Part shown: positions 1 to 54,936 of the stretch, piece by piece
Layout of the letters: each line of letters begins with the position of its first letter
Position numbering within the stretch: position 1 is the first letter of the stretch
Source of the DNA: a bacterium
Lineage (GTDB): Bacteria; Planctomycetota; UBA1135; UBA2386
Assembly: GCA_030432695.1 (NCBI GenBank)
Contig: JAUILN010000010.1
Coordinates: 114,910-178,909, forward strand
Direction: 5' to 3'
DNA: 64,000 bases
Position numbers and translations under genes: made by a program
Notes under the pieces: generated by a model
What the model saw: only the letters and a program-made list of their open reading frames with translations
Database searches by the model: none
What the model was told of the DNA's origin: nothing

Positions 1-242
1 ACTTCCCGAACATCAAGGCCTACTGGATCATGCTGACCGCCGAGAGCGCCCAGACCGCCCTGTCGTTCGGCGCCAACGACATCGACGGCACGGTGACCGA
101 GGAGAAGATCACCCACGACGCCGGCACCACCGCACCCGAGCGGATGAACATCGAGGACCTGCAGAACCTCATCCGCGAGGCCGGCTACACCCCCGTCCAG
201 CGCACCACCACCTACGAAGAACTCGAGGCGGTGGGGGGTTAA
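1..242 (+). CDS. 3' end of futalosine-pathway radical SAM enzyme (MqnC/MqnE family, cyclic dehypoxanthinyl futalosine or aminofutalosine synthase); partial, starts upstream of window
   Basis: Frame 3 reads ...FPNIKAYWIMLTAESAQTALSFGANDIDGTV(T)EEKITHDAGT...NLIREAGYTPVQRTTTYEE, typical C-terminus of MqnC/MqnE. High GC3. Stop TAA at 240-242. Confidence 0.65.
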   Translation, partial: FPNIKAYWIMLTAESAQTALSFGANDIDGTVTEEKITHDAGTTAPERMNIEDLQNLIREAGYTPVQRTTTYEELEAVGG

Positions 243-272
243 CAACTCGACCCGGCCGGGTTGTGAACCCCC
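233..272. repeat. REP-like imperfect palindrome (left arm of REPtron); inverted copy of 1282-1320
   Basis: GGGGGGTTAACAACTCGACCCGGCCGGGTTGTGAACCCCC contains the central perfect palindrome CCCGGCCGGG and is ~93% identical to the reverse complement of 1282-1320. Its GTTAAC core supplies stop codons for both convergent genes. Confidence 0.6.
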
Positions 273-1240
273 TCTGCCTCGTCGACGAGAACCCGCTCCG
301 CGAACGCGGCGCACCAGGCCGAGTAGGCGGCGTCCACCTCGATGCGGACGCAGTGGCGCTTCCAGAGCGCATGGGCTCGCTCGGCCGAGATTCCCAGGCA
401 GAGGCCCACGCCGCGAAACGTCTGACCCGTGAGCGAGCGGAGCATTCCGACTAGCACGCAGCGGGACACGACCTCGTCCACATGGACGGCCAGTGGAAGC
501 GCCGCCTCATCCACCTCTCGCCACGCCTCCAGCAATAGCTCCGGCGGGATGAGTCGAGATCCCCGCGTGGCGTCACCGTCCGCCAACCTCGCACGGCGAC
601 GTAACCACCGTTCCGCGCCATCCGCAACGATGGCCCTGGCCCGGACTCCTGCCGCGATCGGCGTCCGATCCCAGAGGCTGTACTCGATGGAGTCGGACTG
701 GCGACCGGTCGGCCTGAAGAGCCGCGAGTATGGCCCCTCGTCGAGATCGCCATCCGGCAGCAGGCTGCGGATCCAATCCGAGCTGAGCCACTTCGGCGGC
801 CCGGCGACGAACCGCCGGGCGCTCCCATGTGGATACTGCACCGGACGATCACAGAGCCTTGCCTGCACCGGATTCCAATCGATGTAGCCGACGAGAACCC
901 GCCGATAGACCCGATCCCCGACGGAGTTCGAGAAGAACCCGTTCCGCACCAGCGGACCGTCCCGATCGTGAAGCTGGTTGAACGCCTGCACGTAGCGCGA
1001 CTGGATCCAGGCAAGCGAGTCGCTGATCCCGCGGGCTCGGGTTCTCACCAGCAGATGGAAGTGCGTGCGGAGGATCGCGAAGGCGTGAACCTCGAGCCAT
1101 CCGCGCCTGACGGCTCGCGCGACCAAGGAGAGGAACATGCGGATCTCGTGATCCGACTCGAAGAAGGGGCGGCGGCCCACCGCGCGATTCATCACGTGGT
1201 GCCAGGCCCCGGGATGGTCCCGACGATCGATCTTGGGCAT
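239..1240 (-). mobile_element. REP-associated tyrosine transposase (RayT / TnpA_REP, IS200-like HUH Y1 family) with ~190-aa C-terminal extension
   Basis: HUH motif THFHLLV and catalytic Tyr context GYIDWNPVQARL (compare RayT YIYINPVKHG). The N-terminal ~140 aa match the Y1 transposase fold. Flanked by inverted REP-like hairpins. Confidence 0.7.
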
Positions 1241-1281: not shown

Positions 1282-1320
1282 GGGGTTAACAACTCGGCCG
1301 GGTCGAGTTGTTAACCCCCC
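1282..1320. repeat. REP-like perfect hairpin (right arm of REPtron)
   Basis: GGGGTTAACAACTCG-GCCGGGT-CGAGTTGTTAACCCC: 15-bp perfect stem, 7-nt loop. Inverted copy of 233-272. Confidence 0.6.
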
Positions 1321-1450
1321 ATGACGGGTGGGAAAGGTCGGTGCGACCGGCGGAAAAGGGCTGGCCTCCCGAATTTCACTTTCCGTATAGTCGAGGAGTT
1401 CGGCCCGGCCTCGCTGCTCTCGAGGGCGGGCCGATTCGCTCGTTCCTTGG

Positions 1451-3403
1451 ATGCCAAGCGGATATCGCCCCATGCACCACGCCCCTGCTCTCTCCCTCTC
1501 CCTCCTCGCGGCCGCGACGCTGAGCGCGGCCCTCGGCGCGCAGGACGCGCTGCCTTCGATCGAGGTGAAGCCGATGCGTGACGTCACGCAGTTGCCGGCC
1601 CAGTCCTCGACCCGGGTCATCGTGAAGTTCGAGGCCCATGTCGACACCGCCCCGCTGGCGGGTGACCTCGCCGAGCTGCTCGCGCCGCTCGGCGTCCGCC
1701 TGGCCGACCGCGGCTACGCCGGCGCGTTCGAGGTGCTCGAGGTGCCCGCGAACAGCCAGGCGCTGTTCATCGACTGGCTGAACCGCCAGGACGCGGTCGC
1801 CTACGCCGAGCCCGATGGGATGGCCTACGCGTTCGGCAATCCGCCGAACGACACCTACTTCGCCTACCAGTGGCACCTGATGGACCACGGCATGACCAGC
1901 GTCAACGCGGTCAGCAACTTCGGGGTCCAGGCGCCCGAGGCATGGAGCACCGCGAACGGCTCCGGCGCGGTGGTCGCGGTGGTCGACACCGGCGTCGCCT
2001 ACGAGAACTTCGGCGGTTTCGCGCAGGCCCCCGACCTCGCCAACACGTCGTTCACCCCCGGCTACGACTTCGTCAACAACGACACCCACGCCAACGACGA
2101 CGAGGGCCACGGCACGCACGTGACCGGCACCATCGCCCAGTCGACGAACAACAACCTCGGCACGGCAGGCGTCGCCTACGGCGCGACGATCATGCCGGTG
2201 AAGGTGCTCGACAGCAGTGGCTCCGGCGCCATCTCCTGGGTCGCCAGCGGCATCATCTACGCGGCCGACAACGGCGCCGATGTCATCAACCTGAGCCTCG
2301 GCGGCGGCGCCTCGACCACCCTGCAGAGTGCCGTCGACTACGCCTGGAGCCAGGGTGCGGTGGTCGTCGCGGCCACCGGCAACAGCGGCGCCAGCAGCAT
2401 CAGCTACCCGGCCCGCTACACCAACGCCATCGCCGTCGGCGCGACCGACTTCGCCGGCAACCGCTCCTACTACTCCCAGTACGGCACCGGCATCGACGTC
2501 ACCGCACCCGGCGGCGACGTCACCGCCGACCTCAACGGCGACGGCTACGGCGACGGCGTGCTGCAGCAGACGATCGGCACCAGCGTCACCAGCTTCGGCT
2601 ACTACTTCTACCAGGGCACCTCGATGGCCACGCCGCACGCCGCCGGCGTCGCCGCGCTGATCAAGAGCGCCAACCCGAGTCTGAACAACGCCCAGATCCG
2701 CTCGATCCTCGAGTCGACCTGCGTCGACCGCGGGGCCGCTGGCTACGACACGACCTACGGCTACGGAATCGTCGACGCCGCAGCCGCGGTCGCGGCGGCA
2801 GGCGGCGGCGGAGGCGACCCTGCCCCGGGTGCCCCGACCGGCCTCGGCGCCACGGCCGGCGACGGCACCGTGAGCCTCGACTGGAACGACAACTCCGAGT
2901 CCGACCTCGACGGCTACCACGTCTACCGGTCGACCGGCGGCGGCTACACCCGACTGACGAGTTCCCCGATCTCGGCCAGCGCGTACACCGACAACGCGGT
3001 CACCAACGGCACGACCTACACATACGTCGTCACGGCGATCGATAACGCCGGCCAGGAGAGCGCCCAGAGCGGCTCCGCCTCGGCGAGCCCGCAGGGCAGT
3101 GGCGGTGGGGACACCACTCCTCCGGCTACCCCGACCGGCCTCACCGGGAGCAACAGCACGCGTGGAGTCGCCTCGCTCGACTGGAGCGACAACTCCGAGT
3201 CCGACCTCGCCGGCTACAACGTCTATCGGGCAACCAGCCGCAACGGCACCTACTCGCAGATCAACGGCGGCCTGGTGACCTCGAGCGACTACGTCGATTC
3301 CAACGTCAGCCGTCGGGTGCGCTACTACTACAAGGTGACCGCGGTCGACACCTCCGGCAACGAGAGTGGCCAGACCGGCTGGGTCTCGGTCCGCGTCCGC
3401 TGA
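1451..3403 (+). CDS. Secreted subtilisin-like serine peptidase (S8) with two C-terminal fibronectin type III-like domains
   Basis: Signal peptide. Catalytic triad motifs VVDTGV (Asp), HGTHVTGTIA (His), GTSMATPHAAGVAALI (Ser). Two FN3-like repeats (LDWNDNSESDLDGYHVYRS / LDWSDNSESDLAGYNVYRA). Alternative start at 1472. Confidence 0.9.
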   Translation: MPSGYRPMHHAPALSLSLLAAATLSAALGAQDALPSIEVKPMRDVTQLPAQSSTRVIVKFEAHVDTAPLAGDLAELLAPLGVRLADRGYAGAFEVLEVPANSQALFIDWLNRQDAVAYAEPDGMAYAFGNPPNDTYFAYQWHLMDHGMTSVNAVSNFGVQAPEAWSTANGSGAVVAVVDTGVAYENFGGFAQAPDLANTSFTPGYDFVNNDTHANDDEGHGTHVTGTIAQSTNNNLGTAGVAYGATIMPVKVLDSSGSGAISWVASGIIYAADNGADVINLSLGGGASTTLQSAVDYAWSQGAVVVAATGNSGASSISYPARYTNAIAVGATDFAGNRSYYSQYGTGIDVTAPGGDVTADLNGDGYGDGVLQQTIGTSVTSFGYYFYQGTSMATPHAAGVAALIKSANPSLNNAQIRSILESTCVDRGAAGYDTTYGYGIVDAAAAVAAAGGGGGDPAPGAPTGLGATAGDGTVSLDWNDNSESDLDGYHVYRSTGGGYTRLTSSPISASAYTDNAVTNGTTYTYVVTAIDNAGQESAQSGSASASPQGSGGGDTTPPATPTGLTGSNSTRGVASLDWSDNSESDLAGYNVYRATSRNGTYSQINGGLVTSSDYVDSNVSRRVRYYYKVTAVDTSGNESGQTGWVSVRVR

Positions 3404-3407
3404 TCTA

Positions 3408-3452
3408 CTCCTTCCGAGATTCGGCGCGCCCAGCGCAGATTCTCGGAAGGAG
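3408..3452 (+). terminator. Terminator-like hairpin immediately after the subtilase stop
   Basis: ctccttccgagattc-(19 nt)-gattctcggaaggag: ~14-bp stem with one mismatch, 4 nt after the TGA. No T-tract, as is common in high-GC genomes. Confidence 0.4.
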
Positions 3453-3765
3453 TCGATCCAAACAACACCGTCAGCGCGGCCGACTGCCTCGGGGCATGGC
3501 GAGCGCAGCGAGTCGTGCCCCTTCGGTCAAGGCAGGAGGCCGCACAGAGCGACTCCGGAGGAGTCGATCCAAACAACAACGTCAGCGCGGCCGACTGCCT
3601 CGGGGCATGGCGAGCGCAGCGAGTCGTGCCCCTTCGGTCAAGGCAGGAGGCCGCACAGAGCGACTCCGGAGGAGTCGATCCAAACAACAACGTCAGCGCG
3701 GCCGACTGCCTCGGGGCATGGCGAGCGCAGCGAGTCGTGCCCCTTCGGTCAAGGCAGGAGGCCGC
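3450..3765. repeat. Intergenic tandem repeat, 111-bp unit x ~2.9 copies, with nested palindromes
   Basis: The unit gagtcgatccaaacaacaacgtcagcgcggccgactgcctcggggcatggcgagcgcagcgagtcgtgccccttcggtcaaggcaggaggccgcacagagcgactccggag begins at 3450, 3561 and 3672; copy 1 differs by one base (aacaacAcc vs aacaacAAc). Each unit carries the palindrome gactccGGAggagtc and a GGGGCA...TGCCCC stem. Codon third positions are AT-rich in all frames. Confidence 0.85.
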
Positions 3766-3804
3766 GCTGAGCCCGTCGCGATCCTGACGGCTACGCTGGA
3801 ACGC

Positions 3805-5049
3805 GTGACCGGCCTGCGCATCCTCCAACTCCTCGCCCAGCGCCCGGGCCTGACCGGCTCGGGCGCGACCCTCGAAGCACTGACGCGCGAGCTGGAAGGT
3901 CTGGGCCACCGGGTCCACGCCGTCGTCGGTGTCCCCGCCGCGGATGCCCCGCCCCGGATCGCGGAACTCCCGGCCGAGCGCATCCACCCGCTGCGCTTCG
4001 GCCCCGGCGGCGACCTCCCGTTCCCGGTTCCGGGCATGAGCGACGTCATGCCCTACGAATCGACGGTCTTCGCGTCGATGGACGAGGACCAGTGGGCGAG
4101 CTACCGCGAAGCCTGGCGACACCACCTCGCGCGCGTCGTCGCCGACGTCCGACCGGACGTGATCCACTCTCACCACGTGTGGCTGTTGTCCGCACTGGTC
4201 AAGGACGTCGCCCCCGACACCCCTCAGCTGGTCCACTGCCACGCGACCGGCTTGCGTCAGCTCCAGCTCTGCCCTCGTCGTGCGGAAGAGGTCATCAGAG
4301 GAGTGCGCCGGGCCGATGCCTTCGCGACGCTGCAGCAGGAGCATGATGACCGGCTCACGCGCGAACTCGAGATCCCGGAGCACCGCATCCACCGCGTCGG
4401 CGCGGGCTACGACCAGCGGGTCTTCCACGACCGCGGCCGCGCGCCGTCCAAAGGCTCGGTGACCTACGCTGGAAAGATCGCGCTCGCCAAGGGACTGGCC
4501 CCGCTGCTCGACGCGTTCGAGCAGCTGCGCGCGAAGCACCCGAGCGCGCATCTGTTCGTCGCCGGCGGAGGTGCAGGGGCCGAGTCGGACGCCCTCCGCG
4601 CCCGCATCGACGCCGCCCCCTGGGCCACGAAACTCGGACACCTCACGCCCGACCAGCTCGCCGCCCAGCTCCGCACCACCGAGGTCTTCGTCCTGCCCTC
4701 GTTCTACGAGGGCCTGCCACTCGTTCTCGCCGAGGCCCGCGCCTGCGGATGCCGCCTGGTAGCCACCGCACTCCCCTCGATCCAGCAGCTCGCAGCCGCG
4801 TTCGGCGACGCGCTCCGACTGGTCGACCCACCGGAGCGGATCGACGTCGACCGGCCGGCTCCCACCAGCCACTGGACCTTCGTCCGCCGGTTGCAGCAGG
4901 CACTCGACGACTCCCTGTCCCGCCCCGCGGCCCCACCGCCAGACCCGGTATCCGGCCCTCCAGACTGGACTCGCGTGGCCAAACGCATTGCGGGGCTGCA
5001 CGCGAATCTGCTTCGCGAGGGACCCCAGCGAGGGCAAGCCACCGTCTGA
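3805..5049 (+). CDS. Glycosyltransferase family 4 (GT-B fold)
   Basis: N-terminus (M)TGLRILQLLAQRPGLTGSGA...GHRVHAVV matches the GT4 N-terminal pattern, and EGLPLVLAEARACGCRLVAT matches the GT4 catalytic motif. The track ORF starts at 3496 inside the repeat array; I prefer the GTG at 3805 because the repeat-encoded Arg-rich N-terminus has poor GC3. Confidence 0.75.
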   Translation: MTGLRILQLLAQRPGLTGSGATLEALTRELEGLGHRVHAVVGVPAADAPPRIAELPAERIHPLRFGPGGDLPFPVPGMSDVMPYESTVFASMDEDQWASYREAWRHHLARVVADVRPDVIHSHHVWLLSALVKDVAPDTPQLVHCHATGLRQLQLCPRRAEEVIRGVRRADAFATLQQEHDDRLTRELEIPEHRIHRVGAGYDQRVFHDRGRAPSKGSVTYAGKIALAKGLAPLLDAFEQLRAKHPSAHLFVAGGGAGAESDALRARIDAAPWATKLGHLTPDQLAAQLRTTEVFVLPSFYEGLPLVLAEARACGCRLVATALPSIQQLAAAFGDALRLVDPPERIDVDRPAPTSHWTFVRRLQQALDDSLSRPAAPPPDPVSGPPDWTRVAKRIAGLHANLLREGPQRGQATV

Positions 5050-5142
5050 ATCGCTATCCTGGAGCCTTCTCGTCGCGGAAGACCCGGCTGTCCTGCCCTT
5101 CCCACCCTTCCGCTCATCCTCCCCTCCGCAACCTCTCTGTCG

Positions 5143-6879
5143 ATGACCCGATCCCTCAGCGCATTGTGCGCCGTCCTTCTCGCCGCGTCCGTCGCCTCCC
5201 AGGGCATGCCCGGCCCCTGCTGGGAACCGAACCTCGGCACCGGCCTCGCGCTCGGTGACGACGCAGTCTCCCCGGCCCTCCAGCTCGGCTTCCCGTTCCA
5301 GCTGCCGGGCGGCGGCACCACGAACGACATCGAGGTGTCGTCGAACGGATTCATCTACCTGGTGACCGGCTCGAACGGCGGCAACGGCTGCTGTAGCGGC
5401 AACATCGCCACCTTTCTGTCGGGTGTGCCGCGCATCGCCGCAAGCTGGCAGGACCTGAACCCGAACGCCGGTGGTGGTGTCTACTTCAACGCGCTGCCCG
5501 GTAAGGCGGTCATCACCTGGGACCAGGTCCCCGAGTACTCCAGTCAGGGCCAGAACTCCGTCCAGGTGCAGATGTACGCCGACGGCTCGTTCAGCATCGC
5601 GATCCGCGAGTGGACCATGCCCGGCACCCACGACATCCTGGTCGGCGTGACTCCCGGCGGCGGCGTCGCCGACCCGGGCGAGGTCGACTTCACCGGCCCG
5701 AGCCCGGTGCTGAGCCTCAACGACCCGACCGTCTACGAGTTCTACGACAACCCGAACGACTCGCGCGACGTCGCCGGTCGCACCCTCTACTTCCTGCCCT
5801 CGGGCTCGAACGGCTGGGTGGTCTTCGACCAGCCGCAGTGCAGTGCCGCCGGGTTCTCGACCTACGGCACCGGCTGTCCGTTGCGTGGCCCCGTCGCCTA
5901 CGAGTGGTTCGACGTCAACGGCTCGAGCGACTTCCCCGACCTCGCCGCCAACACCGGCGTCGTGTTCACGCGCAACGCCGACGGCACCTACACCACCGGC
6001 CTGTGCCGGAGCAACTGCTTCGAGTCCAACTACCAGGGCCAGTCACTGCCGCTGACCGACGACTCGGTGTCGGCCCCGCTGCCGCTCGGCTTCACGCAGG
6101 ACTTCGCCGGGATACCGAGCGTCTCGCAGATCGTGGTCGCGTCCAACGGCTGGATCCACCTCGACACCACCGCCACGAACAGCCGCTGCTGCAACGGCAA
6201 CGTTCAACAGCTGCTCGACGAGGATCCGGGTCTCGCGCCCTACTGGACCGACCTCAATCCCGCCAGCGGCGGCACCGTGTGGTTCAACGCCCTGCCCGGC
6301 AAGGCGGTCATCACCTGGGATCAGGTTCCCGAGTACGGCGGCGGCAGCCCGCAGACCTTCCAGGCGCAGCTGTTCGCCAACGGCGACATCGTCTACGCCT
6401 ACCAGAGCATCAGCATCGCCACCCACGACGTGCTCGTCGGCCTGTCGGTCGGTGGCGGTGCCGATGATCCGGGCGAGATCGACTTCTCGGTCGGCCAGCC
6501 GTTCACCACCGGCACCTCGGGCACTCCGACCACCCTCGACGTGGTCCCGGGCGCGCTCCCGCAGATCGGTAGCACGCTGCAGGTCGAAGTCGGCTCGATC
6601 CCCAGCACGACCCTGCAGGGCATCCTGTCGTTCGGATTCACCAACCCGAACATCGACCTGACCCTGGCCGGAGCCCCGGGCTGCTGGCTCTACACCTCGA
6701 CCCTGGCGACGCTGCCGTTCAACGCGAACATGCCGACCGCCCAGGTCTCGCTGCCGATCCCGAACAACCCGATGTTCGTCGGCATCGACCTGTTCCTGCA
6801 GGGCGTCATGCTGGTGCCGAGCATCAACAGCCTCAACATCGCGTCGACCAACGGCGGTAACGCGCGCATCGGAACCTGA
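5143..6879 (+). CDS. Secreted protein with an internally duplicated Cys-containing domain plus the shared C-terminal domain
   Basis: Signal peptide. Two paralogous repeats (NGFIYL..GNGCCSGN..NALPGKAVITWDQVPEY and NGWIHLD..SRCCNGN..NALPGKAVITWDQVPEYGG). C-terminus ...GAPGCWLY...LPIPNNPMFVGIDLFLQGV...ARIGT matches the shared domain. Confidence 0.85.
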   Translation: MTRSLSALCAVLLAASVASQGMPGPCWEPNLGTGLALGDDAVSPALQLGFPFQLPGGGTTNDIEVSSNGFIYLVTGSNGGNGCCSGNIATFLSGVPRIAASWQDLNPNAGGGVYFNALPGKAVITWDQVPEYSSQGQNSVQVQMYADGSFSIAIREWTMPGTHDILVGVTPGGGVADPGEVDFTGPSPVLSLNDPTVYEFYDNPNDSRDVAGRTLYFLPSGSNGWVVFDQPQCSAAGFSTYGTGCPLRGPVAYEWFDVNGSSDFPDLAANTGVVFTRNADGTYTTGLCRSNCFESNYQGQSLPLTDDSVSAPLPLGFTQDFAGIPSVSQIVVASNGWIHLDTTATNSRCCNGNVQQLLDEDPGLAPYWTDLNPASGGTVWFNALPGKAVITWDQVPEYGGGSPQTFQAQLFANGDIVYAYQSISIATHDVLVGLSVGGGADDPGEIDFSVGQPFTTGTSGTPTTLDVVPGALPQIGSTLQVEVGSIPSTTLQGILSFGFTNPNIDLTLAGAPGCWLYTSTLATLPFNANMPTAQVSLPIPNNPMFVGIDLFLQGVMLVPSINSLNIASTNGGNARIGT

Positions 6880-6907
6880 TCCGCGATCGGCCGACCGACG
6901 ACGCCGC

Positions 6908-7771
6908 ATGAACGATCCTACCGGGCGCTCGCCCGACGACGAGCCCGAGGACGATCGCTGGTCTCCGGTCGCGGAGGGTTGGGGCCGCTGGGCACCGACC
7001 CTCGACGCCGCGACCGCGGAACTCGACCGCGCGCTGCTCGACACTGCCTGTGTCGGCCGCGGCTCCCACGTGGCCGACCTCGCCTGCGGAACCGGTGAGC
7101 CGGCGTTCGGCGCCGCCCGGCGCGTCGGCCCAGGCGGTCACGTCCTCGCCGTCGACAGCTCCTCGGGCATGCTGCGCGTCGCCCGGATCCGCGCCCGAGC
7201 CCAGGACCTTCCATGGTTGGAGTTCGTCGCGGGCAGCGCCGACGCCATCGCCGAGCGCGGACCGACCCACACCGCGGCACTGTGCCGCTTCGGAGTGATG
7301 CACTTCGACGATCCCCCGCGGGTCCTGGCCACGCTGCGCCAGGGTCTGACCCGAGGCGCACGTGTCGCGTGCGCGGTCTGGGGCACCCGCGCCGAAGTGC
7401 CTTTCCTGCGCCTGCCCCGCGAGGCCGCGCAGCGTCACGGGCTGCTCGACCCCGAGCCGCCAGACGAGGCGTCGGGGCCGTTCCGCTTCGGCGATCCCGC
7501 AGCCGCCAGCGCACTCCTGACCGACGCAGGCTTCGACGAGGTCGGGGTGTCGACGCACAGCGTGCCCCTGCGCTTCCACGGCCCGACCGAGTTCGCCCGC
7601 TTCCTGCTCGACGTCTCGCAGCTGGTCCGTGATGCCGCGCAGCGTGCCGCACCCCAGACCAGGGAGCGCTTCCTCGCCGATCTGGCGGAGACCGCGCTGG
7701 ACCACGCCAGCGCAGACCACGGACTCTGTCTGTCGAACATCGCGCGGATCGTCCACGGGAGAGCGCCTTGA
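6908..7771 (+). CDS. Class I SAM-dependent methyltransferase
   Basis: Motif I VADLACGTGEPA. Good coding bias. Stop overlaps the kefG TTG start (TTGA). Confidence 0.8.
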   Translation: MNDPTGRSPDDEPEDDRWSPVAEGWGRWAPTLDAATAELDRALLDTACVGRGSHVADLACGTGEPAFGAARRVGPGGHVLAVDSSSGMLRVARIRARAQDLPWLEFVAGSADAIAERGPTHTAALCRFGVMHFDDPPRVLATLRQGLTRGARVACAVWGTRAEVPFLRLPREAAQRHGLLDPEPPDEASGPFRFGDPAAASALLTDAGFDEVGVSTHSVPLRFHGPTEFARFLLDVSQLVRDAAQRAAPQTRERFLADLAETALDHASADHGLCLSNIARIVHGRAP

Positions 7772-8340
7772 CCGACAGGTCCTCACCGCAACATCGGACC
7801 CAGGTCCTCTACACGCATCCCGCCCCCGCCAAGTCACGACTCAACGTTGCGCTGCGCAACGCCCTGACCGGGCTGGAGAACGTCACCATCCGCGACCTCT
7901 ACGCCCACTACCCGGACTTCGACATCGACGTCGCCGCCGAGCAACGCGCGCTGCTCGAGCACGACTGCCTGGTGCTCCAGTTCCCGTTCTACTGGTACTC
8001 GAGCCCGGCGCTGCTCAAGCAGTGGCTCGACCTCGTGCTCGAATTCGGCTGGGCCTACGGACCCGGCGCCGACGCCCTGCACGGCAAGCGCGTGATGCTT
8101 GCGGTCACCACCGGCGGCCGCGCCGCCGCCTACCGACCGGACGGCACCAATCGGTTCACGATGACCGAGCTGCTGCGCCCGTTCGAACAGTCGTTCCACC
8201 TCTGCGGAATGCACTGGCTCGAGCCCTTCGTGATCCACGGCAGCCGCGCGGTCACCCACCACGACCTCGAGACCGTCCTGGCACCCGCCTATCGGGCCCG
8301 CGTGGCCGGACTGACCCTCGACGACGGAGTCCACCGTTGA
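7768..8340 (+). CDS. kefG: Glutathione-regulated K+ efflux system ancillary protein KefG-like (NAD(P)H quinone oxidoreductase fold)
   Basis: NVTIRDLYAHYPDFDIDV, LVLQFPFYWYSSPALLKQWLD and RPFEQSFHLCGMHWLEPFVIH align closely with E. coli KefG. TTG start at 7768 is confirmed in the sequence. Confidence 0.8.
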   Translation: MTDRSSPQHRTQVLYTHPAPAKSRLNVALRNALTGLENVTIRDLYAHYPDFDIDVAAEQRALLEHDCLVLQFPFYWYSSPALLKQWLDLVLEFGWAYGPGADALHGKRVMLAVTTGGRAAAYRPDGTNRFTMTELLRPFEQSFHLCGMHWLEPFVIHGSRAVTHHDLETVLAPAYRARVAGLTLDDGVHR

Positions 8341-10199
8341 TCCTCGCCGCCCAGGGGTTCCTCCCGCAGGCCGCGGTCTACCTGGCCGCCGCGGTCCTGG
8401 TCGTGCCGATCGCCCGCCGGCTCGGCCTCGGCTCGGTGCTCGGCTATCTGATCGCCGGCGTCGCGATCGGTCCGTTCGGCCTCGGTCTGGTCGGCGACAC
8501 CGAGAGCGGCGAGATGCTCCACGTCGCCGAGTTCGGCGTGGTGATGATGCTGTTCCTGATCGGCCTGGAGCTGCAGCCGCGCCTCTTGTGGCGCATGCGC
8601 ACGCCGATCCTCGGGCTGGGCGGGCTGCAGGTCGTCGCCACCACCGCGCTGCTGGGCGCTCTCGCGATGGCCGCCGGCCTGAGCTGGCAGGCCGCGTTGG
8701 CGGTCGGCATGACGCTGTCGCTGTCCTCCACGGCGATCGTCCTGCAATCCCTCGCCGAGAAGGGCATGTCCAACAGCGCGGCCGGTCGCTCGGCCTTCGC
8801 GGTGCTGCTGTTCCAGGACATCGCGGTGATCCCGATGCTCGCGCTCCTGCCGCTGTTGGCCAGCGAGTCCACCGCGAGCACGACCGGCGACGGCCAGCAC
8901 CCGCTGGTGGTACTCGGCACGGTCGCCGCCGTGGTGGTCGCCGGCCGCTACCTGTCGCGGCCGGTGTTCCGCTTCCTCGCCGCCTCGGAACTGCGCGAGA
9001 TCTTCACCGCCGCGGCCTTGCTGCTGGTGGTCGGAGTGTCGCTGGCCATGCTCGCGGTCGGCCTGTCGCCAGCGCTCGGCGCGTTCGTCGCCGGCGTGGT
9101 CTTGGCCGAGAACGAGTACCGCCACGAACTCGAGGCCGACATCGAGCCGTTCAAGGGCCTGCTGCTCGGCCTGTTCTTCCTGTCGGTCGGCGCCGGCATC
9201 GACTTCGGCCTGCTCGCCGAACGTCCGGCGACCATCGCCGCGATGGTGGCCGGGCTGGTCATCACCAAGCTCGCGGTCCTGGCGGTGCTCGGACGCGCCT
9301 TTCGGATGCCGGCCGGCGCCGGATTGCTGTTCACCTTCGCGCTGGCCCAGGGCGGCGAGTTCGCCTTCGTGCTGTTCGAGTTCGCGCGGCAGAACGGCGT
9401 CCTCGCGGCAGACACGACCGGCCCCTTGGTCGCCGCCGTCGCGCTCTCGATGCTGGCCACCCCGCTGCTGCTGATCCTCGAAGAGCGCTGGATCCGACCG
9501 CGGCTCCGCTCGGCTGCGTCCTCCGCACCAACCGAAGCGCCGGCCGGCCCCGACGGCCACGCCCGCCGCGTGATCCTCGCCGGCCATGGTCGATACGGTC
9601 ATATCGTCTCGCGCCTGCTCAAGGCCCAGCGGCTGGAACCGACGGTCCTGGAACTCGACCCCACGCAGATCACCCTGCTGTCGCGCTTCGGACTGCAGTC
9701 GTTCTACGGCGACGCCTCGCGCGCCGATCTCCTCGAGGCCGCCGGGGCCCGCGACGCCGAGCTGCTGATCGTCGCCGTCGACGCCCCCGATGCCGCCCTC
9801 GCGATCGTCCGCGAGGCCCGCCGCAGCTTCCCGCATCTGCGCATCCTGGCGCGGGCCCGCGGCCGCGCGTCGGCCTACGACCTGCTCGATGCCGGCGCCG
9901 AGGAGGTGTTCCGCGAGACCCTGGAGAGCTCCCTGGCCCTCGGGGCACGCGCACTCACCGCGTTGGGTCGGCACCCGCACGAGTCCCACCGCGCCGCGCA
10001 GACCTTCGGCCGCCACGACCGCCGCAACTTCCACGAGCTGCACGCGCACCGCCACGACCAGGCGAAGTACGTCTCCGAAGCGCGCGCGCGGATCCAGGCC
10101 CTCGAACAGGTCCTGGAAGCCGACCGGTCCGACGAGTCGCCCGCGGTCGATGGCGCCTGGGACCCACCGGGCCCTCCCGCGCCTCAACCTCCCGCCTGA
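8337..10199 (+). CDS. kefB: Glutathione-regulated K+/H+ antiporter KefB/KefC (CPA2) with C-terminal RCK/TrkA-N domain
   Basis: N-terminus [50 protein letters not shown] matches the KefB/KefC start. RCK domain [18 protein letters not shown]. TTG start overlaps the kefG stop (GTTGA), matching the kefGB operon layout. Confidence 0.85.
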   Translation: [620 protein letters not shown]

Positions 10200-10239
10200 T
10201 CGGTACTCGCGCCGAGCCGGCGTCGCGCGTTGTCCGCCC

Positions 10240-11535
10240 ATGCGCTCACCGTCGATGTCACCGTTCGCCTGTCTGCTCACGGCCTGTGTGATCGCCGGAG
10301 CAGGAGCGTCGCAGGATCGTCCGCCCTCGCGCCGCGAGACCACCGAAATGGTCCGCAGCTTCCTGCAGATCGACGGGAAGACCGCCGACGGCCGCAAGGC
10401 GCAGCGCGAGATCCTGACCCGGCTGGAACTGGTCGCGGGACTGCGCGCGCGCGACGTCCGCGACTGGCGCAAGACCCTGGAGAAGGAGCAGCGCCGCCTG
10501 CGGACCCTCGAAGACGGCCACCGCAACTTCTGGTGGCCCGACGAGGAGCGCGGCCTCTACATGGTCGGCGGCGAGACCCGACGGCCGCGCGGCATCCTGA
10601 TCGCGATGCACGGCGGCGGGGTCGGCTCCGGGGACGCAGCCTCGGCGCACGGCTCCTACGCGCCGGCCGCTGCCGAACTCGACTGGGTGTGCATCAGCCC
10701 CGAGGTGCTGGAGAAGACCGAGCGCGGCTGGACCGACTCCGGCACCGAGGAGTGGGTGATGGACCTCGTCGACGCGGCACTCCGCACCTGGAAGGTCGAC
10801 CCGGCCCACGTCTACCTCGCCGGCCACTCGATGGGCGGCTACGGCAGCTGGACGCTCGGCGCGCACCACGCCGACCGCTGCGCCGGCCTCGCGCCGTCGG
10901 CCGGTGCTCCCACCCCGATCCTGGACCGCGCGACCGGCAAGGTGACCGACCTGGTCGAAGGCGTGATCCCCAACCTCCGGAACGTGCGGATCGCGATCTT
11001 CCAGAGCACCGACGATCCGCGGGTCCCGCCCGGTCCCAACCAGAAGGGCGTCGAGCTGCTCGGCGCGGCACGCGAGCGCTGGGGCGGCTTCGACTTCGAA
11101 TACTGGGAGGTCAGCAACCGTGGCCACGGCTTCCCCGAAGGTGGCGTGGTCGAACTGCTGCGAAGGGTCGAGGAATCGGTTCGCGAGCCGCTCCCCGAGC
11201 GCGTCGTCTGGCAGCCGGCGGTCGCCTGGAAGCGACAGTTCTACTGGCTGCACTGGGAGCGGCCGGCACTCGAGGCCATCGTGGTCGCCGACCTCGACCG
11301 CGAACACAACACCATCGCGATCCAGTCGAACGGCGCCGATCTCGCGGGCCTGTCGGTCTTGCTCGACGAGCGGCTGGTCGACCTCGACGAGGAGGTCGTG
11401 ATCACCGTCGACGGCAAGGAGACCCGCCGCGAGCTGTGCGCGGCGCGGCTGGCCGACCTGCTCGACACCTCGGTGCACCCCGACCCCGCACTCGGCTTCG
11501 CGGCGCGGCTGTCGGTGCTGGCCGACGACGACTGA
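10240..11535 (+). CDS. Secreted alpha/beta-hydrolase (esterase family)
   Basis: Signal peptide. IAMHGGGVG and nucleophile elbow GHSMGGYG. Paralogous to the C-terminal half of the 57305-59674 protein. Confidence 0.8.
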   Translation: MRSPSMSPFACLLTACVIAGAGASQDRPPSRRETTEMVRSFLQIDGKTADGRKAQREILTRLELVAGLRARDVRDWRKTLEKEQRRLRTLEDGHRNFWWPDEERGLYMVGGETRRPRGILIAMHGGGVGSGDAASAHGSYAPAAAELDWVCISPEVLEKTERGWTDSGTEEWVMDLVDAALRTWKVDPAHVYLAGHSMGGYGSWTLGAHHADRCAGLAPSAGAPTPILDRATGKVTDLVEGVIPNLRNVRIAIFQSTDDPRVPPGPNQKGVELLGAARERWGGFDFEYWEVSNRGHGFPEGGVVELLRRVEESVREPLPERVVWQPAVAWKRQFYWLHWERPALEAIVVADLDREHNTIAIQSNGADLAGLSVLLDERLVDLDEEVVITVDGKETRRELCAARLADLLDTSVHPDPALGFAARLSVLADDD

Positions 11536-13522: not shown

Positions 13523-15397
13523 TCAGCGAGCCTCGGGCAGCAGCCGGATCGACCGCAGGTTTGCCAGCGCCTTGCCCTCGGGGATCGCCGCTGCCGAGAC
13601 CCGCAGGGTCGCGCCGCCCTCCGGGACCTCGTCGAGGGTCAGCGTGCCGAGCGCGACGCTGCGGTACGCCTGCCAGCCCGCAGTGGCCTCGCCGAGCTTG
13701 CGCTGCACCCTCGCGCCACCGACCTCGACCTGCAGCGTGCCGCCCTCGTTACCCGGCTGGATCGCGACGTCGGCCCAGACCTGGTAGCGCCGCCCCGCCT
13801 CGACGACCAACCCGTCCCACGCCGCACCGTCGCCGACCGTGGTCCAGTAGCCGAGGTTGCTGCGCGCGCCGCCGGCAGCGCGGTCGTCGTGCGACTCGAC
13901 CTGCAGGTCCTTGGCCGGCCCGAGTGCGGCGTCGCCCGCGTCGAGGACGAACGATCCGTCGGCCGCCGGGAAGCGCCGCGGGTCGACGGCCGGCGGCTCG
14001 CGGAAGTCGAGCGCGACCACCGCCGCGTGGGGATCGGGGAACAGGCCCTGCTGGAGCGCGCGGGACAGGTCGATGCCGAGTCCCCGGTCGTTCCACTGGA
14101 ACTCCAGCTGCGGGTCGTCCGCGGGCCCCTTGCCGGTGACCCACCGCACCCGCTTCAGACTGCCCTGCAGCCCCGCGACGTGCAGCCAACCGCGCTCCGG
14201 CCAGTCGTAGAGCTGCAGGTAGACGGTGCCGCCCTTGGCCGTCGCGTTGCCCCAGGGCGTCCGCGTGAACGGCGCGCGCGTGGTGCCATAGATCGACTCG
14301 CCGTACGTCTCCAGCCAGCGCCCGATCGCCAGGAGCCGATCGACCTGGATCAGCGGGATGCGGCCATCGGCAGTCGGCCCGACGTCGAGCAACAAGTTGC
14401 CGCCGCGCGCCACGGTGTCGATCAACAGGCGGACCGCGGCGGTCCTCGAGATGTAGTCGTCGTAGCCCTCGGCGCGGTTGAAGGCGAACGAGCCGGCGGT
14501 GCCGCGACACTCCTCGAAGGGCTTCCTGCCGGCGAAGGTGTCATGGCCACCGTGGTGGCCGTACTCGGTGGTGTAGAAGTCACCGACCCGCCCACGCAGC
14601 CCCTTGCCCCAGCGGTCGTTGATCACCAGCCGCTCGGCGTCGGGGTGATTGGCGCGGATCCAGTCGACGATCTCCAGCGCGCGCCAGCTCGAGTCCGGGT
14701 GGTTCCACTCGCCGTCCGGCCAGAACACCGTCGGCCGGTAGCGTTCGACGAGTTCACGGATCTGCGGGAACATCACCCGCTCGACGTAGGCCGCGCGGTC
14801 GCCGTCGTACAGCGGGCTGTGCCACTCCATGAACGAGTAGTAGAGGCCCATGTCGAGACCGGCCGCGCGCACCGCCTCGGACAGCTCGCCGACCAGATCG
14901 CGCCGCGGCCCGGTCGCCGCACTGTTCCACGCGTAGCCGCGCACCTCGCTCGCCACCTCGCTCGGCCACAGGCAGTAGCCGTCGTGGTGCTTGCTGGTCA
15001 GCACCACGTAGCGCGCGCCGGCCCGCCGGAAGATGTCGGCCCACTCCGCGGGATCGAACAGCTCGGCCCGGAACAGCGGTGCGAACTCGCGGTACTCGAA
15101 GTCCTCGCCATAGTTCGCGGCGTGGAAGCGGCGCTCGAGACCGTCGTGGGCGTTGGTGTCCAGCCAGTGTTGGTACCACTCCGAGTAGGTGCTGGTGTCG
15201 CAGAACGACGGCACCGAGTAGACCCCCCAGTGGATGAAGATCCCGAACTTCGCGTCGGCGAACCACCCGGGCGTCGCGCGGGCGTTGCGCGACTCCCAGC
15301 TGGGATCGAGATCCTGCGCGGGCACCGCGGCGGAGGATCCGGCGATGGCTGCGGCGACCGCCGACACGAACGGGAGGAGCTTGCGAAACAGGGCCAT
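13523..15397 (-). CDS. Secreted alpha-L-fucosidase (GH29) with C-terminal carbohydrate-binding domain
   Basis: FGIFIHWGVYSVP, YVVLTSKHHDGYCLWPS and FWPDGEW are GH29 signatures. Signal peptide MALFRKLLPFVSAVAAAIAGSSAAVPA. The track ORF extends spuriously to 15556. Confidence 0.9.
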   Translation of the reverse strand: MALFRKLLPFVSAVAAAIAGSSAAVPAQDLDPSWESRNARATPGWFADAKFGIFIHWGVYSVPSFCDTSTYSEWYQHWLDTNAHDGLERRFHAANYGEDFEYREFAPLFRAELFDPAEWADIFRRAGARYVVLTSKHHDGYCLWPSEVASEVRGYAWNSAATGPRRDLVGELSEAVRAAGLDMGLYYSFMEWHSPLYDGDRAAYVERVMFPQIRELVERYRPTVFWPDGEWNHPDSSWRALEIVDWIRANHPDAERLVINDRWGKGLRGRVGDFYTTEYGHHGGHDTFAGRKPFEECRGTAGSFAFNRAEGYDDYISRTAAVRLLIDTVARGGNLLLDVGPTADGRIPLIQVDRLLAIGRWLETYGESIYGTTRAPFTRTPWGNATAKGGTVYLQLYDWPERGWLHVAGLQGSLKRVRWVTGKGPADDPQLEFQWNDRGLGIDLSRALQQGLFPDPHAAVVALDFREPPAVDPRRFPAADGSFVLDAGDAALGPAKDLQVESHDDRAAGGARSNLGYWTTVGDGAAWDGLVVEAGRRYQVWADVAIQPGNEGGTLQVEVGGARVQRKLGEATAGWQAYRSVALGTLTLDEVPEGGATLRVSAAAIPEGKALANLRSIRLLPEAR

Positions 15398-20763: not shown

Positions 20764-22146
20764 TCACCGGATTCCGATCACTGCGGTCCCGCCGTCCGAA
20801 GTCGTCGCGTTGCCGGGATTGGCACCCGGATCGAGTGCGAGAGCTTGCGTGTAGAAGCCGAGCCCCAGTGCCGCCGGATCGGTGGGCATCGTCAACGTGA
20901 ATGCTGCACGGCCATTGTTGCTGGGGATGCCTTGGTTCACGAACGGCTCGACCCGCAGCGAGCAACCGGTCAGGCCGAAGGCATCGAGAGCGAACGGCAG
21001 CTGAAAGCCACCCCAGTTGGTGTTCGAGAAGCCGATGAACGCCACCGTGGTCGTCGCCGGGATCCGCAGGTTGGTGAACGCGACCTCGAACGGCTCGCCG
21101 GCCCACGGCAGACCACCGACGTCGTGCAGTGGCGCCCGCCCATTCGAACCGACGCAACCGCCCCCGAAGGCTGCCCAACGAGCCGGGTGATCGGTCGAGA
21201 ACTCCCACAGGTCCGGGTTGCCGGTGAGGCCACCGAACATCACCACGCGCTCGCGCAGCGAGTCCCACACCATGTAGTCGTCGTAGCGGGCCGGCGGCAG
21301 GCTGACCGGCATCCGCTGCACCCAGTCGGCACCATCCCACTCCCAGGTGTCGGCGGTGCCGGTGCCGCCGAACATCACGATTCGTCGGCGCAGCAGGTCG
21401 GTGGCCATCGTGTGGTCGTAGCGCTGCGGCGGCGTGGTCACGGGCTGCAGCTGACGCCAGTCGACGCCGTCGAAGTACCAGGTGTCGGGGCCCTGCTGGT
21501 AACCGCTGAACAGCAGCACGCCGCCCCCCACCGGGTCCCACGCCATGTCGCTGGCGCGCCGGGCTGGCGGTGCGTTCTGGGTGTTGATCTGCCGCCAGTT
21601 CACGCCATCCCACTCCCAGGTGTCGTTCACGTCGGCGTTCGCGTCGATACCACCCCACATCACGGTGGTACCGCGGATCGGATGGAACACCATGCAGTGC
21701 GAGCGGCGCGCCGGCGGCGAGATGGCGGGAGACATCAACGACCAGTCCTGACCATCCCACTCCCAGGTATCGCTGGTGACCCCACTGGCGTCGAGCCCAC
21801 CGAACAGGACGACCCGGTTGCGGATCGAGTCGTAGACCATCGGGTGCGCGACCCGGATGCCCGGCGAGTTCAGCGGCTGGACCTGGGTCCAGTCGTTGCC
21901 GTCGTAGACCCAGGTATCCGCCAGCCGCTGTGTGCCGTCGTATCCACCGTGCAAGACGATGCGGTCATTGACGGTGTCGTAGGCCATTCCATGGCCGGCG
22001 CGACCGGTCGGAGTATTGGCCGGCGTCAGCGGCCGCCAGTCGACCTGCCCGGCGAGAGGGAGCGCCACGCCGGCGAAGACGCAGAACGTCGTGAGGCCGA
22101 GACGGAACGAAACGGACGAAGAGATCGAAGAGCGTGTCTGGGGCAT
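20764..22146 (-). CDS. Secreted Kelch-repeat beta-propeller protein with the shared C-terminal domain
   Basis: Signal peptide. Six or more Kelch-like blades (DTWVYDGNDW, DTWEWDGQDW, DTWEWDGVNW, DTWYFDGVDW, DTWEWDGADW, DLWEF). C-terminus FGGGCVG...LTGCSLRVEP...LGFYTQALALD...VIGIR. Confidence 0.85.
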   Translation of the reverse strand: MPQTRSSISSSVSFRLGLTTFCVFAGVALPLAGQVDWRPLTPANTPTGRAGHGMAYDTVNDRIVLHGGYDGTQRLADTWVYDGNDWTQVQPLNSPGIRVAHPMVYDSIRNRVVLFGGLDASGVTSDTWEWDGQDWSLMSPAISPPARRSHCMVFHPIRGTTVMWGGIDANADVNDTWEWDGVNWRQINTQNAPPARRASDMAWDPVGGGVLLFSGYQQGPDTWYFDGVDWRQLQPVTTPPQRYDHTMATDLLRRRIVMFGGTGTADTWEWDGADWVQRMPVSLPPARYDDYMVWDSLRERVVMFGGLTGNPDLWEFSTDHPARWAAFGGGCVGSNGRAPLHDVGGLPWAGEPFEVAFTNLRIPATTTVAFIGFSNTNWGGFQLPFALDAFGLTGCSLRVEPFVNQGIPSNNGRAAFTLTMPTDPAALGLGFYTQALALDPGANPGNATTSDGGTAVIGIR

Positions 22147-22264: not shown

Positions 22265-22379
22265 CCACCGCTTCAGCGGCCCAGGACCCACCGCTTCAGC
22301 GGCCCAGGACCCACCGCTTCAGCGGCCCAGGACCCACCGCTTCAGCGGCCCAGGACCCACCGCTTCAGCGGCCGAGGAC
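22265..22379. repeat. 23-bp direct tandem repeat x5 (ccaccgcttcagcggcccaggac) in the intergenic region upstream of the Kelch gene
   Basis: Units at 22265, 22288, 22311, 22334 and 22357, the last with a G variant. Period is not a multiple of 3. Overlaps the stop of the 22365 gene. Confidence 0.85.
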
Positions 22380-47592: not shown

Positions 47593-47595
47593 GGC

Positions 47596-54894: not shown

Positions 54895-54936
54895 GAGGGG
54901 TGAACATCTCGGCCCGGCCGAGAGGTTCACCCCCTC
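54895..54936. terminator. Near-perfect palindrome / bidirectional terminator between convergent genes
   Basis: gaggggtgaacatctcggcc|cggccgagaggttcaccccctc: ~19-bp stem. Confidence 0.45.

Follow-up and report, generated by a model that had tools for sequence, protein, structure and literature searches.

A 111-bp tandem repeat between a subtilase gene and a glycosyltransferase gene as a probable amplified insertion of a dispersed non-coding hairpin element

The window, the whole 64-kb stretch of DNA that was analysed, holds a tandem repeat between a subtilase gene and a GT4 glycosyltransferase gene, both co-directional. The sequence-only reading of this DNA had described it as a 111-bp repeat in about 2.9 copies, and this was borne out by Tandem Repeats Finder. 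By far the strongest repeat of the window was reported at 3448-3772 with a period of 111, 98% matches, a score of 629 and, in the window as assembled, 2.9 copies. The stop codon TGA of the subtilase gene (3401-3403) adjoins the element, and the hairpin ahead of the array begins inside this codon. Contigs from short-read assemblies of three independent public sequencing runs were 100% identical to the window and were broken at both array edges (1291-3477 for L004, 3720-8553 for L001 and 3736-8553 for L002), which is the expected behaviour of a short-read assembler at a real repeat. The coordinates of all features are collected in Table 1.

The gap-free copies of the 111-bp unit were located at 3442-3552, 3553-3663 and 3664-3774. 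Copies 1 and 2 had been said to differ by one base, and this was the case within the repeat proper (C at 3468 versus A), but their first six bases differed as well, copy 1 having there the 3′ arm of the upstream hairpin. Copy 3 had been called truncated. It matched the other copies exactly up to 3765 and diverged after that position (GCGCTGAGCCC vs GCACAGAGCGA); however, it ended with GGAGGCCGCGCTG, the predominant right end at array ends and junctions of the repeat family described below. The palindrome and the stem that had been named as parts of each unit were both present, the former (GACTCC-GGA-GGAGTC) at both unit junctions with arms at 3547-3556/3560-3569 and 3658-3667/3671-3680, the latter (GGGGCA...TGCCCC) in each 111-bp unit. 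Every unit held a 78-nt imperfect hairpin, which was named H-A. The best outer stem of the three, TCAGCGCGGCC.../...GGCCGCGCTGA, belonged to H-A copy 3 (19-nt arms, 89% complementary; fold of -61.7 kcal/mol). A separate 45-bp hairpin had been placed ahead of the array; the hairpin was real, but larger, and it is probably not separate from the element, as it sits where the full units of the family carry a second hairpin. Beyond H-A copy 3, positions 3770-3781 (GCCCGTCGCGAT) weakly resembled the start of a further unit; the blastn match of a unit from contig L086 extended to 3781, and a repeat search gave a 71% copy at 3779-3795. A CRISPR was excluded, as it had been before, because whole units including the inter-hairpin segments were repeated and there were no unique spacers.

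Table 1. Features of the window around the array and copies of the related element on contigs of assembly ERZ25039549
Sequence	Feature	Position	Strand	Evidence or copy number
Window	Subtilase gene (S8 + fn3)	1472..3403	+	Pfam; exact protein on Logan contig L004
Window	Left hairpin, probably of the first unit	3402..3458	+	Inverted repeat, 26-nt arms (3402-3427 / 3433-3458) 88% complementary; fold -40 kcal/mol, z -7.1
Window	A/C-rich linker CAAACAACACC, left hairpin to H-A copy 1	3459..3469	+	Sequence; unpaired in folds
Window	H-A copy 1	3470..3547	+	Covariance model R1 85.3 bits; HMM from ERZ25039549 copies only, E 8.8e-13
Window	Short junction palindrome GAGCGACTCC-GGA-GGAGTCGATC, then linker to 3580	3547..3569	+	Inverted repeat; fold -11.6 kcal/mol, z -3.5
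Window	H-A copy 2	3581..3658	+	R1 85.3 bits; HMM from ERZ25039549 copies only, E 8.8e-13
Window	Second short junction palindrome, then linker to 3691	3658..3680	+	Inverted repeat
Window	H-A copy 3	3692..3769	+	R1 91 bits; HMM from ERZ25039549 copies only, E 4.1e-13
Window	Right flank and GT4 5′ region	3770..3804	+	Between H-A copy 3 and GTG 3805
Window	GT4 glycosyltransferase gene, outside the repeat, most likely start GTG 3805	3805..5049	+	Homologue starts, codon statistics
L085	Array	172-673		About 3.5 copies
L085	Array	10784-11359		4.0 copies
L086	Array	10051-11133		7.7 copies
L087	Array	9808-10615		5.7 copies
L090	Array	about 9954-10640		5 copies
L091	Array	about 9887-10325		3 copies
L089	Pair of copies	3158-3378		
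L087	Solitary copy	18991		
L089	Solitary copy	10662		
L086	Degenerate copy	1004-1080		
L086	Copy with apical stem deleted	13610-13722		

The coding status of the array was investigated by codon statistics and by comparison with homologues. It had been pointed out that ATG 3496 would give the glycosyltransferase three copies of an Arg-rich peptide, and the corresponding 517-aa ORF was confirmed. The accompanying claim that the repeats are non-coding, made from third-position composition, also held. GC3 of the array in the frame of ATG 3496 was 0.57-0.60 versus 0.85-0.94 in the four neighbouring genes, and its codon-usage log-odds fell below zero whichever of the six frames was read (-0.2 to -0.8 bits per codon), whereas real genes in their true frame gave values of +0.25 to +0.75. 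The codon statistics shifted at about 3760-3800. The best database match, P0001, was 100% identical and 443 aa long, which corresponds to a gene call from ATG 3718, inside copy 3. The other listed GT4 homologues were at most 55% identical and about 400-430 aa long, too short for the Arg-rich extension, which is therefore absent from them. Ten aligned homologues began 1-3 residues ahead of a conserved (V/I)L(Q/H)xLxQRP motif, pointing to GTG 3805 as the start, and the extension was present in none of the ten. The array is non-coding. Based on GC3, the log-odds and the homologue starts, it was concluded that the Arg-rich peptide is spurious and the database start wrong, both the NCBI gene start (ATG 3718) and the longest ORF (ATG 3496) being false extensions into the array. 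The true start of the GT4 gene, as predicted from these comparisons, is most likely GTG 3805.

RNA folding, which had been suggested as a check, gave stable hairpins. On both strands, the predicted fold of spacer 3404-3804 was far more stable than that of shuffled sequences (z = -8.4 and -7.9), and the predicted structure consisted of one hairpin of -40 kcal/mol and three hairpins of about -56 kcal/mol. No U-tract followed the stems on the + strand of the array, and neither a promoter nor a terminator was evident within each unit.

Further, relatives of the unit were searched for in sequence collections. No Rfam family was found, the best scores being those of the let-7 and mir-306 microRNA precursor models (E 0.27-1.6), which are artefacts of the long hairpin. 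Within the 64-kb window, no further copies were revealed by blastn, a mismatch search or a covariance model with filters off. Exact patterns of 22-24 nt taken from the unit were absent from the collections of genomes, metagenomes and viruses, with 0 matches for GGAGTCGATCCAAACAACAMCG among the species representatives of the genome collection, 0 matches for GTGCCCCTTCGGTCAAGGCAGG in the JGI metagenomes and 0 matches in the scans of the viral collection. One JGI metagenome sequence (L088) matched the conserved core CGGCCGACTGCCTCGGGGCRTG, but it lay in an AT-rich context with no further similarity and was judged unrelated. The plasmid and phage collections gave no match, and no match to the core sequence was found in the literature. 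Neither subtilase synteny nor unit homology nor a comparable upstream repeat was seen at 80 loci of GT4 homologues (about 50% identity, many phyla). The H-A model found no match in 880 kb from 80 other genomes.

Gene callers at 70% GC often call ORFs across non-coding repeats. For this reason, the six-frame translation of the unit was used as a query against protein databases. The matches were three proteins, P0124-P0126, each of which resembled all three forward frames of the unit (RGRLPRGM, SAADCLGA, ARPTASGH) several times over. The DNA behind them was found on four contigs of the ENA/NCBI assembly ERZ25039549, of 70-71% GC and thus close to the window in base composition. Later searches yielded P0127-P0129 as well as two additional loci, again of the same assembly, and a protein search with P0126 together with an exhaustive representative search returned proteins of ERZ25039549 only.

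In about 127 kb of ERZ25039549, 34 copies of the 78-nt core were recorded at about 11 loci. Tandem arrays of 143-144-bp units, with 2-8 units each, were located at six loci, and solitary and decayed copies occurred in addition to them. The units within arrays were strictly head-to-tail. The genes beside these loci were mutually unrelated, and the element was in the sense orientation to at least one adjacent gene in 11 of the 12 loci; the L085 172-673 array was antisense to both neighbouring genes. The sampled regions of the window and of ERZ25039549 had no genes in common. The planctomycete signature domains PSCyt1/PSCyt2/PSD1 and DUF1501 were found both in the window and in the ERZ25039549 loci, hence both organisms probably belong to the Planctomycetota.

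The homology of the core was examined with an HMM built without the window copies, from ERZ25039549 alone, so that the result was not circular. The model found exactly the three window copies with E values of 4e-13 to 9e-13, the next match having an E value of 1.6. Identities of 76-80% over 71-92 nt were obtained by blastn between the window and the ERZ25039549 units, and H-A was 78 nt long in both. Its 5′ arm of 25 nt, GCGCGGCCGACTGCCTCGGGGCATG, was identical between the window and nearly all ERZ25039549 copies, and the 3′ foot of about 13 nt, GGAGGCCGC(G/A)C, was also conserved. In the alignment, the basal arms of H-A showed 0 differences between the two assemblies, versus 17 differences in the other 40 positions.

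The fold of H-A consisted, in order, of an outer stem, an internal loop, a second stem, a bulge and a 14-bp apical stem with a triloop, making 29 pairs in three helices. Pairing was kept in 88.8% of cells across 20 distinct copies versus 35-49% with slid partners, and compensatory changes were recorded for three pairs. An excess of G.T-type over A.C-type variants in the stems was considered in the analysis as a sign of a top-strand (RNA or single-stranded DNA) structure and was not retained, as all 27 distinct copies gave 11 versus 6 pair-column types, which was not significant (p = 0.17). The structure may act as RNA, as single-stranded DNA or as a cruciform, on either strand.

The units of ERZ25039549 carried a second hairpin, H-B (GGATCCTCGCG-loop-CGCGAGGATTC), and a purine-rich linker ahead of H-A. 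H-B was 95% paired with one double change. Its loop read GGA in most copies, TCC or TCG in L087, and flipped between GGA and TCC within the single L091 array, hence the loop polarity is not conserved. The 57-nt hairpin 3402-3458 of the window precedes the first H-A at the position equivalent to H-B, and ahead of H-A copies 2 and 3 the palindrome, with a GGA loop, is far shorter. A sequence homology of hairpin 3402-3458 to the left module of ERZ25039549 was not supported by shuffling tests, the similarity being not significant; the hairpin is probably part of the element by its position and size only. The 111-bp period would fit a unit of ~148 bp minus the tip of its left hairpin, which would have been lost before or during amplification. 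The ends of the element, G(T/C)CGCGRAG on the left and GGAGGCCGCGCTG on the right, did not form an inverted repeat.

Several paralogues of a DUF222-HNH gene in ERZ25039549 allowed a site to be compared with and without the insert. The uninterrupted paralogue (L089, minus strand, about 1500-780) reads ...PVQWQTW-KNATAKLRAEMGCPDD..., and two further paralogues were split at that exact codon by one unit (L089 10595-10741) and by four units (L085 10784-11359), giving a series of 0, 1 and 4 units at one codon of paralogous genes. A rearranged fragment of the gene contained two H-A copies. An HNH gene was also considered as a partner of the arrays and rejected, since the '241-aa HNH ORF' annotated beside several of them is what remains, as a 3′ half, of a DUF222-HNH gene that the insertion has split. 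TGG occurs once in the uninterrupted paralogue and on both sides of the insert in the filled ones, and it preceded six of seven intact left ends. The window array is flanked by CGCTGA, at 3398-3403 including the subtilase stop codon and at 3765-3770 at the end of the last H-A. These TGG and CGCTGA flanks could fit a short target duplication, a target motif mimicking the element's own end, or slippage at a microhomology. Insertion beside such a mimicking motif would in itself produce head-to-tail arrays. No transposase linked to the element, nor a cognate Y1 transposase for the H-A family, was found in the 64-kb window and about 127 kb of ERZ25039549.

The family was compared with the known interspersed repeats of bacteria. 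Its nearest analogues were the REPIN/REP clusters of Pseudomonas and Enterobacteria, which likewise consist of a long imperfect hairpin of about 70-110 nt with two inverted arms and a variable spacer, and they are extragenic, dispersed and present in numerous copies, with singlets that decay. REP clusters form ordered head-to-tail tandem arrays of nearly identical hairpin units including flanking segments (PMC3116915). REP elements sit near the 3′ ends of the genes ahead of them and lead to falsely extended N-termini in the genes that follow, and the REP arm is a 20-40-bp palindrome with a conserved GTAG or CGTC tag (PMC3733652). In contrast, the arms of H-A were not clear palindromes of this kind, the self-complement of the arm being just 4 bp; GTAG was not present, and CGTC lay one base 5′ of H-A in the window only (AACGTCAGCGCGG), where ERZ25039549 had ACGGAAGCGCGG. 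A RAYT-like ORF was recorded 2 kb upstream at 239-1240, with 23.0 bits for Pfam Y1_Tnp (equal to the cut-off of 23) and 54 bits for NCBIfam REP_Tyr_transpos (cut-off 80). It was rejected as a partner of the array, as the GGGGTTAACAACTCG palindromes on either side of it belong to another family. No RAYT gene was seen in the ERZ25039549 loci. In the absence of a conserved tag and of REP palindromes in the arms, and with the RAYT-like gene having different palindromes of its own, the data do not support placing the family in the REP/RAYT system proper.

BIME-2 of E. coli and BOX of Streptococcus pneumoniae are modular mosaics, with hairpin modules and linkers repeated to a variable extent from one locus to another, and they are transcribed together with neighbouring genes. 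The H-A family resembles them as a modular mosaic of hairpins and linkers with variable reiteration between loci; however, there is no sequence relationship, the H-A modules are larger (78 nt plus 33-65 nt) and the phylum is different. The MIRUs of Mycobacterium have a 40-140-bp unit that lies in tandem between co-directional genes at many loci in variable copy number, and descriptions of them include small ORFs overlapping the neighbouring stop and start codons. The likeness to MIRU/VNTR loci lies in a tandem intergenic unit whose copy number varies between homologous sites, here the DUF222-HNH paralogues, and the difference in units of 143-144 bp, which are not multiples of 3, and in a non-coding sequence. 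The small size, the lack of an ORF, a hairpin near each end, the constant TGG left flank and the lack of terminal inverted repeats recall the IS200/IS605-derived PATE elements and other MITEs. The ends of IS200/IS605 usually have similar hairpins, whereas the two hairpins of the H-A unit are unlike each other; IS200/IS605 elements are not known to make a target duplication, whereas TGG may be one of 3 bp. Classical MITEs have terminal inverted repeats and were excluded, since the element has none.

Taken together, we consider it likely that the array arose when a small non-coding repeat element from a dispersed hairpin family was inserted at this site and amplified in tandem, where the dispersal was observed in ERZ25039549 and the genome of the window contributed one locus within 64 kb. 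By analogy with REPIN, BIME, BOX and MIRU, the family is regarded as a previously undescribed one within the well-known class of bacterial interspersed hairpin repeats. It was proposed that one element of about 150 bp, consisting of hairpin 3402-3458, the linker and H-A, would have landed directly 3′ of the subtilase stop codon, where CGCTGA is the same as at the right end of the element itself. A form with a reduced left hairpin would then have been amplified to three H-A copies, whether through slipped-strand mispairing, through unequal recombination or through further insertions at the end of the element. That the copies are nearly identical speaks for a recent event or for homogenisation. 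Any consequence for the host is most likely incidental.

Among the explanations offered by the sequence-only reading (a structured leader, a protein-binding array or a recently expanded minisatellite), the last came closest, while a dedicated GT4 leader or a locus-specific protein-binding array is unlikely because the 78-nt core is dispersed over many ERZ25039549 loci. Even so, a minisatellite confined to this locus, in which ordinary intergenic DNA lacking both relatives at other sites and the identity of an element was recently duplicated in tandem, appears very improbable. It would account for the almost identical copies, for the lack of another copy in the 64-kb window and for the absence of repeat-specific 22-24-mers from the genome, metagenome and viral collections, but not for the homology of the core to 34 copies at about 11 loci of ERZ25039549 with the same length and an invariant 25-nt arm. 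A cis-regulatory RNA kept for its function, either a riboswitch-like 5′ leader of GT4 or a tandem terminator of the subtilase gene, would agree with the very stable folds (z -4 to -8), with the orientation of the array along both flanking genes, with the compensatory changes in H-A and with the fact that 11 of 12 loci have the element in sense to one or both neighbouring genes. It is nevertheless quite improbable. Rfam gave no match, the neighbour genes at other loci were unrelated, one insertion lay within a coding sequence and one array (L085 172-673) was antisense to both of its neighbours; decayed and internally deleted copies exist, the + strand has no U-tract after the stems, and nothing comparable was found upstream at the 80 GT4 homologue loci. 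An array of small RNAs titrating CsrA/RsmA through GGA motifs in hairpin loops was suggested by the GGA triloop, present in the junction palindrome and in the left hairpin of most ERZ25039549 units, and by the best Rfam scores on the L086 array, which were those of RsmW (20-28 bits, E 0.02-0.65, all below threshold). These scores were far under the gathering score of 52 and the window had none, so the CsrB/Rsm clan was rejected; moreover, the loop polarity is not conserved (TCC/TCG in L087, GGA/TCC flips in L091), no promoter or terminator was evident per unit and insertions lie inside an ORF. We therefore regard such a sponge as highly unlikely.

To the coding alternative, an Arg-rich N-terminal extension of the glycosyltransferase (MASAASRAPSVKAGGR... 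peptide), we give practically no credence. The ORF is open from ATG 3496, 111 equals 37 x 3 and the database gene call takes in 29 repeat-derived residues, but every plus-strand frame is open, which a GC content of 70% leads one to expect, and the related units of 143-144 bp are not a multiple of 3. Against it stand also the GC3 of 0.57-0.60, log-odds of -0.6 to -0.7 bits per codon versus +0.25 to +0.75, and the homologues, with the extension in 0 of 10 aligned and about 400-430 aa in the listed ones, too short for it. A DNA-level array bound by a nucleoid-associated protein, gyrase or a recombinase that recognises the 25-nt arm is compatible with the insertion of a dispersed element, although as an explanation of its own it has a low probability. 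The 25-nt 5′ arm and the 13-nt 3′ arm were invariant between the assemblies, versus 17 of 40 other positions differing, and the stem variants showed no significant strand bias; however, no candidate protein was found, and a recognition site of a transposase or nuclease at the end of the element explains the same pattern. We also considered, as an unlikely but broader reading, that H-A represents a new type of non-autonomous mobile DNA with an enzyme-recognised 25-nt foot, which would build head-to-tail arrays by insertion beside a TGG/CTGR motif resembling its own 3′ end, or else that the arrays are co-opted, copy-number-tunable RNA structures lying between genes. Such mobile DNA would have no terminal inverted repeats and would be moved by an enzyme possibly acting on single-stranded DNA, and its arrays would grow by insertion behind an existing copy rather than by slippage.

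Returning to the amplified insertion, its most direct effect is on annotation and assembly. The array gives the GT4 protein a false start in the database, 443 aa instead of about 414. In ERZ25039549 the family creates the fictitious proteins P0124-P0127 and P0129 as well as a false N-terminal extension of the Omp85-like P0128. For short-read assemblies the array is a break point. It reveals no new regulatory or defence system. If co-transcribed, it would place a stack of very stable hairpins in the 3′ UTR of the subtilase mRNA and the 5′ UTR of GT4. REP/BIME elements have been reported to attenuate read-through or to protect upstream mRNA 3′ ends. By analogy, the array may attenuate read-through into GT4 or protect the 3′ end of the upstream mRNA, in which case the copy number would set the strength of the effect. 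The finding adds a new repeat family to the REP/REPIN/BIME/BOX class, from uncultured, probably planctomycete, genomes, and the empty and filled sites with 0, 1 and 4 units, together with the conserved 25-nt arm, could help to find the enzyme that moves such elements.

The ORF near the left end of the window, together with the palindromes on both sides of it, represents the classic RAYT-plus-REP arrangement (Table). The ORF scored 23.0 bits with the Pfam Y1 transposase model, which equalled the curated cut-off of 23; the NCBIfam model for REP-associated tyrosine transposases gave 54 bits, below its cut-off of 80. The Logan contig L004, identical to the window, begins at position 1291 within the second flanking palindrome, which suggests that this palindrome is present repeatedly in the genome. 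The palindrome family has no relation to the 111-bp unit.

Table. Coordinates of the features in the window and in the assembly ERZ25039549
Feature	Location	Position (strand)	Description
RAYT-like ORF	Window	239-1240 (-)	333 aa; IS200-like Y1 transposase domain
37-nt palindromes	Window	234-272; 1282-1318	Near-identical, GGGGTTAACAACTCGrCC / inverse; both sides of ORF 239-1240
Third palindrome of the RAYT-flanking family	Window	54897-54933	Diverged
23-bp tandem repeat	Window	22265-22382	Unit CCACCGCTTCAGCGGCCCAGGAC; 5.1 copies, 98% identity
DUF1501 + PSCyt1/PSCyt2/PSD1 gene pair	Window	46147-50019	'Planctomycete cytochrome C' domains
DUF222-HNH endonuclease gene paralogues	L085	10444-12093	Full or partial
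DUF222-HNH endonuclease gene paralogues	L089	680-1500 (-); 3389-3600; 10053-11475	Full or partial

All three Logan contigs, each from a different sequencing run, end exactly at window position 8553, within a conserved transmembrane motif of a Na+/H+ exchanger gene. This shared end probably marks a branch of the assembly graph with related organisms sampled in these runs, rather than a repeat. The DUF1501 and PSCyt1/PSCyt2/PSD1 gene pair of the window points to an origin in the Planctomycetota. The organism is also present in SRR24442557, one of the sequencing runs, which is a metagenome from biofloc aquaculture (PMC10582022).

The database protein P0001 (443 aa), identical to the window GT4 glycosyltransferase, corresponds to positions 3718-5049 and starts at an ATG within repeat copy 3. 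Homologues indicate a predicted start at GTG 3805, giving a protein of 414 aa. A 98-bp tandem repeat (1.9 copies, 96% identity) was observed at 4980-5170 of L049, a locus from a Sulfomarinibacteraceae MAG, ~830 bp upstream of a GT4 homologue; its sequence is unrelated to the 111-bp unit. The 23-bp repeat of the window lies just beyond the start of a Kelch-repeat gene (20764-22146, minus strand), with the small palindrome CCGCT-TC-AGCGG present in every unit.

Over 22 nt (CGGCCGACTGCCTCGGGGCGTG), the JGI metagenome contig L088 agrees exactly with the conserved 5' arm of hairpin H-A, at 6162-6183 (minus strand). The surrounding AT-rich intergenic region showed no further similarity, and the match is probably due to chance or to an unrelated small hairpin.

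In the array of three units at 9887-10325 of L091, a locus of ERZ25039549, the left hairpin has the triloop GGA in the first unit and TCC in the other two. This switch is a palindrome-tip inversion, in which the hairpin tip was flipped in place.

Several DUF222-HNH paralogues (79-95% identical) were found in the same assembly. An IS110-family transposase gene adjoins the DUF222-HNH gene in L089, and the HNH part matches the HNH region of IscB weakly (38.7 bits versus a cut-off of 175). The DUF222-HNH gene is itself multi-copy in ERZ25039549 and probably selfish.
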